From NCBI GenBank assembly GCA_038851565.1, contig JAWCKV010000007.1:1-30005 (forward strand): 30,005 bases of DNA, given 5' to 3'. The translations under genes were made by a program, and so were the position numbers. Positions 21,002 through 26,235 of the stretch are shown here, in pieces. The stretch is from Candidatus Hadarchaeales archaeon. Its GTDB lineage: Archaea; Hadarchaeota; Hadarchaeia; Hadarchaeales; Hadarchaeaceae. The notes under the pieces are model-generated. The model was not told the origin of the DNA. It ran no database searches and saw only the letters and a list, made by a program, of their open reading frames with translations. The first letter of the stretch is position 1. The number at the start of each line of letters is the position of its first letter.

Positions 21002-21666
21002 GCTTCGGCCTCCGCGTCTGGTGGCACTCCTATGTTTGCCACGATCACCGGTCCGGTCACCTCTCCGCGCTCCAGCAGTCCGACCTTCATCCTGTGGAAT
21101 GTTATCGTCACGTCTGCCCTGACGGTCCTCCCGCACGCCCTGCCGGTCAGGGGATCCAGCCCCGAGGGAACGTCCACGGCCACCTTGAATGCCCTGCTTC
21201 CGTTCACGAGATCTATGACGGAGGCGTATGGCTCCCCGAGCTCACCCCTTATCCCGGTCCCAAATATGGCATCGACTATCACATGGACCCCCTCCACGGC
21301 CTTTCGGAGTTCATCCATGAAGGAAGGATCGGAAACCGTGAGGAGGCGGATCGAGGACGGCATACCCGATACCACCCTGAGGTTGTGCGATGCCTCCGGC
21401 GTCTTCACGTCCTCACGCCTTCCCACGAGGAAGACCTCCACGGAAAAGCCGTACGCGGCGAGATGCCGGGCCGCCACAAGGCCATCCCCTCCGTTGTTTC
21501 CGGTGCCGCATATCACCGCCACCCTTCTTCCGGCCGGGTCCATCCTGCTCGCGATGAAATCGGCCACCGCCTTCCCTGCGTTTTCCATCAGCATCAGCCT
21601 TGAGACGCCCATTCGCTCAGCCCTCTCCTCTATCCTCCTCATCTCATCAGGAGTTATCGCCCTCAC
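20998..21666 (-). CDS. nnrE: NAD(P)H-hydrate epimerase (YjeF N-terminal)
   Basis: LMENAG, CGTGNNGGDG, VDAIFGTG, AVDVPSG, TFHRMKVG; GTG 21666 overlaps the dph5 stop. Confidence 0.92.
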   Translation of the reverse strand: MRAITPDEMRRIEERAERMGVSRLMLMENAGKAVADFIASRMDPAGRRVAVICGTGNNGGDGLVAARHLAAYGFSVEVFLVGRREDVKTPEASHNLRVVSGMPSSIRLLTVSDPSFMDELRKAVEGVHVIVDAIFGTGIRGELGEPYASVIDLVNGSRAFKVAVDVPSGLDPLTGRACGRTVRADVTITFHRMKVGLLERGEVTGPVIVANIGVPPDAEAEA

Positions 21667-22430
21667 CTTACCAGGTCCTCCGGCGCCCCCGCGAAAACCC
21701 TCAGCGCCTCCGCCTCCAGAAAGTGGAGCCTTCCCGGAACCACCAGCGCGTGAGGAGGACTCCCAAAGTCGAAAGCCCTCAACGCCTTCACGGCATCTGC
21801 CTTTACCACCTGGTCGTCCCAACCTGCGCGCGCTATCCCGACCGCCAGCATCTCCTCTGAAAACGCTCCCCTCTGAAGAGAACCCTCCAGACCGAGCATG
21901 ATCTCTATCGCCTCACGGATCGTCATGGCACGCCCCTCATCTGTCCGTATGTCCAGAAGGAGTAGTGTGTGCAGACCGCGCTGGAGGTTATCCGCGAGCA
22001 CATCGTACGGCCTGGTGGAGGGATTGTCGGGAAACGGCACAGTTGCAGAGGGGCCAAACCTGTAGCTCTGCAGGCCTGTCAGCCCTGGCACCGCAGAGAG
22101 AACGGAGGCTGACGGTATCACCCTGGTCTCTACCCCGGCCTTCGCTGCCCTGAGCCTGAGGTCAACGTGAGTGGTTGCAACCATGGGGTCGCCTGGAACC
22201 AGAAACACCACATTTTTCGTCTTCGCCTCCTGAATCATCTCGTCTGGATTTTCCTCGACGAACTTCCTGTTCACCAGCCGCACCGGTCTTCCGATGATTT
22301 TTCCCAGGTCGTGCTCCGGAAGCATGCTCGTGTAAAGCTCGGCATAGACGGCATCCGCGCGCCTTGCGAGCTCAAGGCCCCGCAGGGATATTCCGCCCCG
22401 CCCTACTCCAAGCCCAACGAAAGTCAGCAT
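21663..22430 (-). CDS. dph5: Diphthine synthase
   Basis: MLTFVGLG, ELYTS, GDPMVATTH, GLQSYRFG, HTLLLLDI, PPHALVVPGRLHFLE. Confidence 0.95.
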   Translation of the reverse strand: MLTFVGLGVGRGGISLRGLELARRADAVYAELYTSMLPEHDLGKIIGRPVRLVNRKFVEENPDEMIQEAKTKNVVFLVPGDPMVATTHVDLRLRAAKAGVETRVIPSASVLSAVPGLTGLQSYRFGPSATVPFPDNPSTRPYDVLADNLQRGLHTLLLLDIRTDEGRAMTIREAIEIMLGLEGSLQRGAFSEEMLAVGIARAGWDDQVVKADAVKALRAFDFGSPPHALVVPGRLHFLEAEALRVFAGAPEDLVR

Positions 22431-22473
22431 CGCAAATACTTAATTAGGCATTCCATAAATGAATGATGGGCCC

Positions 22474-22591
22474 GGGCCCGTGAATGGGCAGAGCCCATCG
22501 GGAAGCTCAGTCTGGTTAGAGCGCTCGACGGCTTTGCCGGGCGAAGCTCTTAACCGAGATGTCGAGGGTTCGAATCCCTCCGGGCCCGCCA
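22474..22591 (+). tRNA. tRNA-Lys(CTT) with two introns (22483-22504 at 9/10; 22528-22545 at 30/31), CCA encoded
   Basis: After removing both introns: GGGCCCG TG GCTC AGTCTGGTTA GAGC G CTCGG CTCTTAA CCGAG ATGTC GAGGG TTCGAAT CCCTC CGGGCCC G CCA, a standard cloverleaf; both introns have BHB motifs. Confidence 0.92.
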
Positions 22592-22597
22592 ATTTTA

Positions 22598-23146
22598 ATG
22601 GCGTACGTGCTATTTCATCCTGTGAAACTCGAGCTTGTCCTGGATGGGCGGACAAAAGCGTTCGACATCGCGCGGCTACAGCGCGCCCTGATGGAGGCGT
22701 TCAGCGGCTTCTTCGATGGAGTTCTCAGCAGGATCTCAGATATCACGGAGGGAACATACAACCCCGCAAGGGGGCAGCACGATGCTGAAATGATTCTGGC
22801 CAGGCTTCTCTCGGAGACCGGAAAGGGGAAGATCGCGCTGGGGGTGGTTGGCGTTGACATATACGTCAGGGGACTGAATTTCGTCTTTGGACTCTCCCGG
22901 CCATCCGGGAGGGCAGCGCTTATCTCCACCTTTCGCCTCAGTCCGGAGTTCTACGGCTGTGCCCCCGACGGAAGGAAGTTCGAGGAGAGGCTGATCAAGG
23001 AGGCGATTCACGAGCTCGGGCACGTGTTCGGCCTCAGGCACTGCCCGGACCGGAGATGCGTTATGCGCTTCTCCAACTCCATCATGGAGGTAGATGAGAA
23101 ATCGCACGAATTCTGCGCGAGGTGCAGGAGGGCGCTGCGGCGCTAA
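22598..23146 (+). CDS. amzA: Archaemetzincin (peptidase M54)
   Basis: YNPARGQ, DIY..GLNFVFG, KEAIHELGHVFGLRHC, CVMRFSNS..EVDEK, FCARC. Confidence 0.93.
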   Translation: MAYVLFHPVKLELVLDGRTKAFDIARLQRALMEAFSGFFDGVLSRISDITEGTYNPARGQHDAEMILARLLSETGKGKIALGVVGVDIYVRGLNFVFGLSRPSGRAALISTFRLSPEFYGCAPDGRKFEERLIKEAIHELGHVFGLRHCPDRRCVMRFSNSIMEVDEKSHEFCARCRRALRR

Positions 23147-26130: not shown

Positions 26131-26235
26131 AGCCCCGTGGTGTAGCGGTCTGGGTCAGAGCATGTGCTGTCCCCCGTAAAAGCATCCCGGCCTTTGGAGC
26201 CGGTGACGGCGGTTCGAATCCGCCCGGGGCTACCA
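26131..26235 (+). tRNA. tRNA-Gln(TTG) with a D-loop intron (26151-26179, position 20a/20b), CCA encoded
   Basis: Spliced form: AGCCCCG TG GTGT AGCGGTCAA GCAT C CCGGC CTTTGGA GCCGG TGAC GGCGG TTCGAAT CCGCC CGGGGCT A CCA; the A1-U72 pair is typical of archaeal tRNA-Gln. Confidence 0.92.

Follow-up and report, generated by a model that had tools for sequence, protein, structure and literature searches.

A tRNA-Lys(CTT) gene of a Hadarchaeales archaeon with predicted introns at positions 9/10 and 30/31 and a 5' leader that may assist splicing

Non-canonical intron positions listed for tRNA genes are 3/4, 20/21, 22/23, 25/26, 29/30, 30/31, 45/46, 53/54, 56/57, 59/60 'etc.' (Yoshihisa 2014, PMC4090602). 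Position 9/10 is not in this list, the comparison covering the running text of that paper. Neither a 9/10 position nor a leader helping in splicing was found in the accessible parts of PMC5829648, bioRxiv 10.64898/2026.10.13.758758, PMC4033280, PMC3239211, PMC12397907, PMC3293823, PMC11291895, PMC3218864, PMC3978253 and PMC8450103. The alpha4-type EndA of Hadesarchaea has been linked to marked tRNA disruption (Kaneta 2018, PMC5829648), and the intron richness of the Hadarchaeales group was therefore already known from that work. The first-pass annotation of the locus described here had assigned non-canonical multi-intron tRNAs to Thermoproteales and a few other lineages; this is to be amended, since the part of PMC5829648 available already ties the Hadarchaeales host to many disrupted tRNAs.

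The window, that is the whole stretch of DNA analysed, spans 30,005 nucleotides (positions 1 to 30,005 of contig JAWCKV010000007.1, assembly GCA_038851565.1, hereafter G000). It hosts a tRNA-Lys(CTT) gene interrupted by two inserts, which are almost certainly spliced BHB introns located at positions 9/10 and 30/31. The features of the locus are the following.

21663..22430, minus strand: dph5 (diphthine synthase, Pfam PF00590), divergent neighbour used as synteny marker
22430..22446, plus strand: BRE/TATA-like box, predicted archaeal promoter of the tRNA gene, placed by its position in orthologues
22468..22473, plus strand: GGGCCC, segment of the predicted 5' leader that duplicates 6 nt of the 5' acceptor strand, read from the sequence and able to pair with 22582-22587
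22474..22482, plus strand: exon 1, tRNA positions 1-9 with G9, from in silico splicing and the G9 of intron-free matches
22483..22504, plus strand: predicted intron 1 at 9/10, 22 nt, strict hBHBh', from pairing check, shuffles and the relatives G009, G013, G022 and G034
22505..22527, plus strand: exon 2, positions 10-30 (D arm and 5' anticodon stem), from in silico splicing
22528..22545, plus strand: predicted intron 2 at 30/31, 18 nt, strict hBHBh', from pairing check, 30/31 being used also in Lys and Met genes of relatives
22546..22591, plus strand: exon 3, positions 31-76, from the sequence and ARAGORN
22549-22551, plus strand: anticodon CTT, within exon 3
22589-22591, plus strand: encoded CCA, within exon 3

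Once both inserts are cut out, ARAGORN finds a 78-nt tRNA-Lys(ctt) cloverleaf with a score of 123.3, comparable to that of intact tRNAs; when every BHB-like cut in the region was tried without bias, the same two introns ranked best, with the same score. The unspliced gene is invisible to ARAGORN, and reaches 29.1 bits with Rfam, only just at threshold. In mature numbering the junctions fall after nt 9 and nt 32, i.e. at positions 9/10 and 30/31. In intron 1 the central helix has 4/4 Watson-Crick pairs, the exon helix 3/3 pairs (one G-U) and the intron helix 6/6, the bulges being TG|A and AA|G. The corresponding helices of intron 2 are formed by 4/4 (one G-U), 4/4 and 4/4 pairs, with bulges CG|A and AA|G. 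In both, a 4-bp helix is thus flanked by a pair of 3-nt bulges and bordered by outer helices, as expected for BHB introns, and removal at the second bulge nucleotide yields a canonical tRNA agreeing with intron-free orthologues. A similar motif at 9/10, combining a 4-bp central helix and at least 4 intron-helix pairs, was met in 43 of 200,000 random 22-mers. The coordinates, helices and bulges given in the first-pass annotation were all borne out, as every pair named there was verified against the sequence, and the two-intron BHB tRNA-Lys(CTT) that it proposed is upheld by ARAGORN on the spliced form and by the G9 of orthologues. It had also held that lack of expression of the locus, along with an intronless Lys-CTT gene elsewhere, would refute it; a search of G000 (86.7% complete) for a second Lys(CTT) anticodon arm found none. 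The 6-nt leader copy upstream of the tRNA was absent from that annotation.

A canonical 37/38 intron was ruled out, as neither junction lies one base 3' of the anticodon; a split or permuted tRNA was likewise ruled out, the gene being contiguous and collinear over 22474-22591. The nearest named relative of the protein encoded by the flanking dph5 gene is 72% identical and comes from a 'Candidatus Hadarchaeales archaeon'. On the other side, an archaemetzincin gene (Pfam M54) is found at 22598-23146 (plus strand), with an in-frame ATG 7 nt past the tRNA CCA, and may be co-transcribed with the tRNA.

A cut at 8/9 also yields a valid cloverleaf, with A9, according to ARAGORN, and the register of intron 1 had therefore to be tested on relatives. 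Intron-free sequences that match this 5' end, found in 31 of 66 genomes of the phylum, carry G9 in 24/32 and A9 in 8/32 cases; G9 is found in the same-genus genome G001. In two loci (L148 and L149) a cut at 8/9 would give U9, and in tRNA-Met genes hosting the same intron A9 is retained under 9/10 only. The 8/9 register, which lacks a central helix and does not fit the G9 of orthologues, was rejected, and on these comparisons the first junction is assigned to 9/10.

Genes with the same organization were searched in other archaea. In the host phylum, true 9/10 genes account for 20/25 pattern rows and are found in 16/66 genomes; 10 are Lys(CTT) and 10 Met(CAT) genes. The remaining 5/25 rows were discarded as not being tRNAs. 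Closely similar Lys(CTT) introns are present in Hadarchaeota/Hadesarchaea genomes. In the sample of the class Bathyarchaeia the pattern matched 43/251 genomes, and 30/45 pattern rows were retrieved as loci. A GTDB-wide scan, restricted to tRNAs whose positions 4-7 read CCCG, yielded 95 loci. Thirty-two of these are 9/10 candidates, distributed among Hadarchaeota-type genomes (12, one of them named 'Hodarchaeaceae'), Bathyarchaeia (15), Methanomethylicia (2), Nitrosothermus (1), Altiarchaeota (1) and Aenigmatarchaeota (1). The other 63/95 loci have no 9/10 intron, and nearly all are tRNAs free of introns, matched by chance in their upstream sequence. The intron helix lay outside the search pattern, and could hence be used as a separate check. 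Three or more of the first 4 pairs of this helix are formed in 19/19 distinct introns of the phylum versus 2.9 expected from shuffles, and in 36/37 Bathyarchaeia introns versus 5.4 expected. The isotypes of seven three-intron genes (L131, L142, L144-147, L151) were assigned by an anticodon regex. Viral contigs gave 8 pattern matches, 0 of which had a T arm in the sequence examined. The least secure case is the Aenigmatarchaeota gene (L071): its anticodon is TAT, the 16-nt insert at 9/10 is weakly paired, and a pairing leader is lacking.

Introns at 9/10 are thus found in at least six archaeal lineages, and are under-catalogued rather than unique. It had been suggested that the position might be rare or new; this stands as far as the published list is concerned, and in metagenome-assembled genomes the position is not rare. 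Lys(CTT) orthologues of the host family (L155-L179) feature no intron at all, or introns at the D-loop/D-stem boundary, 30/31, 37/38 or 9/10, and combinations of these, which points to rapid intron turnover at one mostly syntenic locus.

The GGGCCC copy at 22468-22473 may form 6/6 Watson-Crick pairs with 22582-22587, the strand that faces the true 5' acceptor strand in the mature tRNA. The association of such leaders with introns was scored on the duplex formed by the 15-nt leader with positions 66-76, a value of -9 kcal/mol or better defining a pairing leader. In the host phylum pairing leaders are found in 20/20 genes with a 9/10 intron versus 0/36 without, and in Bathyarchaeia in 37/38 versus 4/19 genes. 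Pooling the two, the leader is present in 57/58 genes with and 4/55 genes without the intron. It was found also in 14/15 scored tRNA-Asn genes with an 8/9 intron, and in 1/3 scored 9/10 genes of other lineages; two Methanomethylicia Lys(TTT) genes have, by eye, a wobble-type leader. The 9/10 genes lacking a strong leader are L126, L048 and L071. Left unscored were one positive gene and four controls in Bathyarchaeia, one control in the phylum and two other controls. Three flagged Asn genes and L217 are outside the scored Asn set, and in the Asn gene of G000 the scoring anchor fell inside its 8-nt copy.

As many as 25/36 leader-negative controls of the phylum carry other introns (D-arm, 30/31 or 37/38), and the leader is therefore not a general companion of introns. 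Bathyarchaeia leaders are not plain copies of the 5' strand. They include G-U wobbles, extend the pairing to N73 and CCA, and follow the discriminator, C being opposite G73 in 26/29 and T opposite A73 in 8/9 genes; this reach to N73 is not conserved among genes of the host phylum. Three Bathyarchaeia Lys(TTT) genes (L240, L241, L242) lack a 9/10 intron and have leaders that still pair moderately (-10 to -14 kcal/mol); these are possibly remnants left after intron loss, or chance pairings in GC-rich leaders.

The leader is plausibly transcribed. A TATA-like box is located 28-33 nt upstream of the tRNA in 20/22 listed intron-free orthologues, the regex finding no box in 2, and 35-36 nt upstream in 3/5 intron-bearing genes, those sharing the box (35 nt in G000). 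In these 3 genes box and copy are spaced by 29-30 nt. The copy is therefore a 6-nt addition at the place that base 1 occupies in intron-free relatives, and would be transcribed if transcription starts as we infer. A sigma-70 promoter scan, ill suited to archaea, gave no match.

Since the genomes are related, the counts overstate the number of independent events; separate support comes from the distinct lineages and from contrasts within genera (g1, g9). The dph5 gene adjoins tRNA-Lys(CTT) in 4/10 intron-bearing and 22/28 intron-free loci tested. In a tree of Dph5 from 24 syntenic loci, G000, which has both intron and copy, is sister to G001, which has neither (support 100/99), and the intron/copy state requires 2-3 changes; clustering on the tree is not significant, as 76/500 label shuffles were equally clustered.

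The 9/10 motif is built from bases 1-7, and is therefore mutually exclusive with the acceptor stem. Folding models were used to evaluate this competition. They do not favour the BHB geometry (in all runs the probability of the central helix of intron 2 is at most 0.07, that of the outer exon helix of intron 1 at most 0.03), and only the direction of the shifts given below is therefore to be considered. In the full-length precursor the predicted probability of the central helix of intron 1 is 0.000 without the leader; with the leader, it is 0.48, 0.26 and 0.21 at 37, 60 and 75 C, respectively. None of 300 random 6-nt leaders did as well as the native one at either 37 or 65 C. When the structures were folded explicitly at 37 C, the energies were -42.9 kcal/mol with the acceptor stem formed, -34.1 for the BHB without helper and -48.2 for the BHB plus leader pairing, the margin falling to about 2 kcal/mol at 65 C. 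In partial transcripts without leader ending at 22510-22552 the central helix is predicted with a probability of 0.29-0.78, dropping to 0 once the 3' strand exists. Considering transcripts ending at 22530-22552, the value is 0.01 with the leader versus 0.33-0.78 without; the leader is thus predicted to lower the motif in partial transcripts, which leaves room for the co-transcriptional route. In the precursor spliced in silico at both junctions, the leader is still predicted to hold the 3' strand (0.88), so release would need tertiary folding or capture by RNase P, both outside the model.

The host encodes predicted splicing enzymes. G000 encodes a single-unit EndA of 179 aa, found in two copies (PF01974/PF02778). 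Among single-unit PDB entries it best matches the alpha4 enzyme of M. jannaschii (1a79, E 1e-40), and Tyr, His and Lys, which we take to be the catalytic triad of that enzyme, are found at the corresponding positions. EndA was identified in 59/66 genomes of the phylum, as a single match in all but three. A beta-subunit model matched only the same EndA gene in 5/5 genomes, a search that a highly divergent beta subunit could escape. Being a single subunit of about 170-180 aa with no beta match, the enzyme is by sequence of the alpha4 type. It lacks the crenarchaeal CSL loop (a gap relative to A. pernix 3p1z) and shows no insertion relative to 1a79 in the Tyr-His region; 31 EndAs of the phylum align gap-free in the two regions compared. 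RtcB and RNase P RNA genes were found in 5/5 genomes checked; G000 has both, its RtcB gene being interrupted by a contig end. A PF01746 (Trm10/TrmD) model gave hits in 0/5 genomes, and also in 0/4 archaeal control genomes.

About 10/36 tRNA genes recovered from G000 (two by eye) host non-canonical introns. The tRNA-Gln(TTG) gene of the window (26131-26235, plus strand) has a 29-nt D-loop intron at 26151-26179, about 20a/20b, with a motif lacking the outer exon helix (relaxed HBh'), and is labelled Phe by ARAGORN when introns are allowed. The tRNA-Asn(GTT) gene (C27:1224, minus strand; L224) features a 19-nt intron at 8/9 and a 57-nt intron at 37/38, and its leader includes an 8-nt direct copy of the 5' end of the gene. 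Relatives of this gene are found at loci L213-L231, and the Asn 8/9 pattern in 19/66 genomes of the phylum. The tRNA-Asp(GTC) gene (C33:7983, plus strand) has introns at about 53/54 and at 68/69, the latter inside the 3' acceptor strand and absent from the list of positions in the text of PMC4090602. The trailer of this gene holds a near-copy of the 3' strand. The idea that this spare strand aids the 68/69 intron was rejected: at 37 C the helix had a probability of 0.81 without the trailer and of 0.17 with it. Pro(TGG) and Arg(CCT) genes are doubled in G000, one of the two Arg(CCT) genes having a 37/38 intron that the other lacks, and two EndA-TrpRS blocks, with EndAs 89% identical, are found in contigs C49 and C10 (L031, L032). 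The bin likely mixes two close populations.

The gene anatomy, the register of the junction and the co-occurrence of intron and leader are shown by the data above, as is the existence of genes for EndA, RtcB and RNase P RNA; on this ground a model of maturation may be drawn. We regard as likely that the interrupted Lys(CTT) gene is cut by EndA and joined by RtcB, and that the leader frees bases 1-7 for the 9/10 motif. The start of transcription, the cleavage, the exchange of strands and the sequence of these steps are set out here as we infer them. Transcription would begin at or just upstream of 22468. Once made, the 3' acceptor strand would be paired by the leader instead of bases 1-7; bases 4-7 would be left to pair with the 3' end of intron 1, and EndA would cut at TG|A and AA|G. 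RtcB would ligate the exons, the 30/31 intron being spliced independently. By branch migration the true 5' strand would regain its place in the acceptor stem, and RNase P would irreversibly remove the leader, 5' maturation being thereby kept behind splicing.

The first-pass annotation had concluded that splicing of intron 1 has to precede folding of the acceptor stem. This is only one of two routes, since the leader is predicted to permit the motif in the full-length precursor. Were it the sole route, both introns would be real, the 9/10 motif would be cut co-transcriptionally ahead of the 3' acceptor strand, and the leader would be incidental or a back-up. The values predicted for leaderless partial transcripts (0.29-0.78, and 0 after the 3' strand) are consistent with such early cleavage, as are the three 9/10 genes without a strong leader. 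This would however have to be accomplished within only about 80 nt of transcription, and the presence of the leader in 57/58 versus 4/55 genes, its wobbles and its complementarity to N73/CCA are left unexplained; we hold this rather unlikely. The leader might alternatively act only as a checkpoint, its pairing with the 3' end mainly holding back RNase P, 3' processing or charging as long as the intron is present. Bathyarchaeia leaders do span N73-CCA, the pairing with the 3' strand is predicted to outlast splicing (0.88), and, in the part of PMC9433436 available, bacterial RNase P is reported to be inhibited by leader pairing with the 3' RCCA. Genes with other introns also need ordering, yet have no leader, and the 9/10 motif is predicted to be absent from full-length RNA when the leader is missing; a checkpoint as sole function seems highly improbable, and is compatible with leader-assisted splicing as a side benefit.

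A different origin for the copy would be a target-site-like duplication made by the arrival of the intron, with no role in splicing. An exact tandem copy (+6 nt) between promoter and tRNA, as found in G000 and several relatives, is what such a scar would look like, and the copy comes and goes with the intron. It is missing, however, from the 25 genes whose introns lie in the D arm or at 30/31 or 37/38, and Bathyarchaeia leaders diverge from bases 1-7, still pair, and reach N73-CCA, which a duplication of bases 1-7 cannot yield. The scar alone is distinctly unlikely as an explanation, and could account for the origin of the copy, with selection as the reason for its retention. That the locus is a pseudogene or an assembly artefact is scarcely credible. 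The bin does contain duplicated loci, such as the two EndA-TrpRS blocks mentioned; yet the gene is the sole Lys(CTT) found in G000, its spliced product scores like intact tRNAs, and the same intron, with a helix varied in sequence and still paired, is found in many independent assemblies.

Extending leader-assisted splicing beyond this locus, we lean slightly towards a wider reading, in which 8/9 and 9/10 introns are possible only with a co-acquired leader, acting as a 'decoy strand' that exchanges with the 5' acceptor strand. This switch would have arisen, or have been tuned, separately in Hadarchaeota, Bathyarchaeia and Methanomethylicia, would couple splicing to RNase P, and would hide essential Lys, Met and Asn tRNAs from annotators. 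The data extend the map of positions where archaeal tRNA introns can persist, and point to a requirement beyond the BHB, namely a 5' leader helper where the motif competes with the acceptor stem. The leaders of tRNAs, usually seen as disposable, would gain a testable function. A second, linked change would accompany intron gain, a point of relevance to how such introns arrive. As genes of this type are missed by annotators (ARAGORN in this study), tRNAs apparently missing from metagenome-assembled genomes may be such genes.

Several described systems resemble the one reported here. The census of Asgard introns (bioRxiv 10.64898/2026.10.13.758758) similarly deals with 5'-side introns missed by annotators and with gains recurring at BHB-compatible sites; the portion of that work available describes no leader helper, and its supplements may list 8/9 or 9/10. 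The Hadesarchaea of Kaneta 2018 (PMC5829648) belong to the same group, and share a single-subunit EndA and raised tRNA disruption; intron positions and leader helpers are not described in the sections accessible. The same work refers to an 'L3 loop', which the alignments made here do not confirm, no loop insertion being seen in the EndA of G000 relative to that of M. jannaschii. The tRNA-Lys(CUU) that is split in Nanoarchaeum equitans and Staphylothermus (Chan 2011, PMC3218864, as far as its text is available) is of the same isotype, is broken at 30/31 and has a canonical hBHBh'. There flanking sequences aid BHB formation, as is proposed here; in contrast, the gene described here is contiguous, and its leader pairs with the mature 3' strand and is not part of the excised helix. 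The non-canonical BHB introns of Thermoproteales, ARMAN-2, Caldiarchaeum and Asgard covered in the accessible text of PMC4090602 are alike in being short, protein-spliced hBHBh' elements, several of which may occur per gene. The list given there includes 30/31, the site of intron 2, and has 3/4 as its extreme on the 5' acceptor side. Intron 1 differs from them in its location at 9/10, in the connector between acceptor and D arm, in a motif formed by bases 1-7 that excludes the acceptor stem, and in the presence of a pairing leader. The BHB intron class itself is known; what is new, as judged from sequence comparisons, is a predicted intron at position 9/10, not found in the texts compared, together with a putative cis helper that the comparison of lineages supports well.
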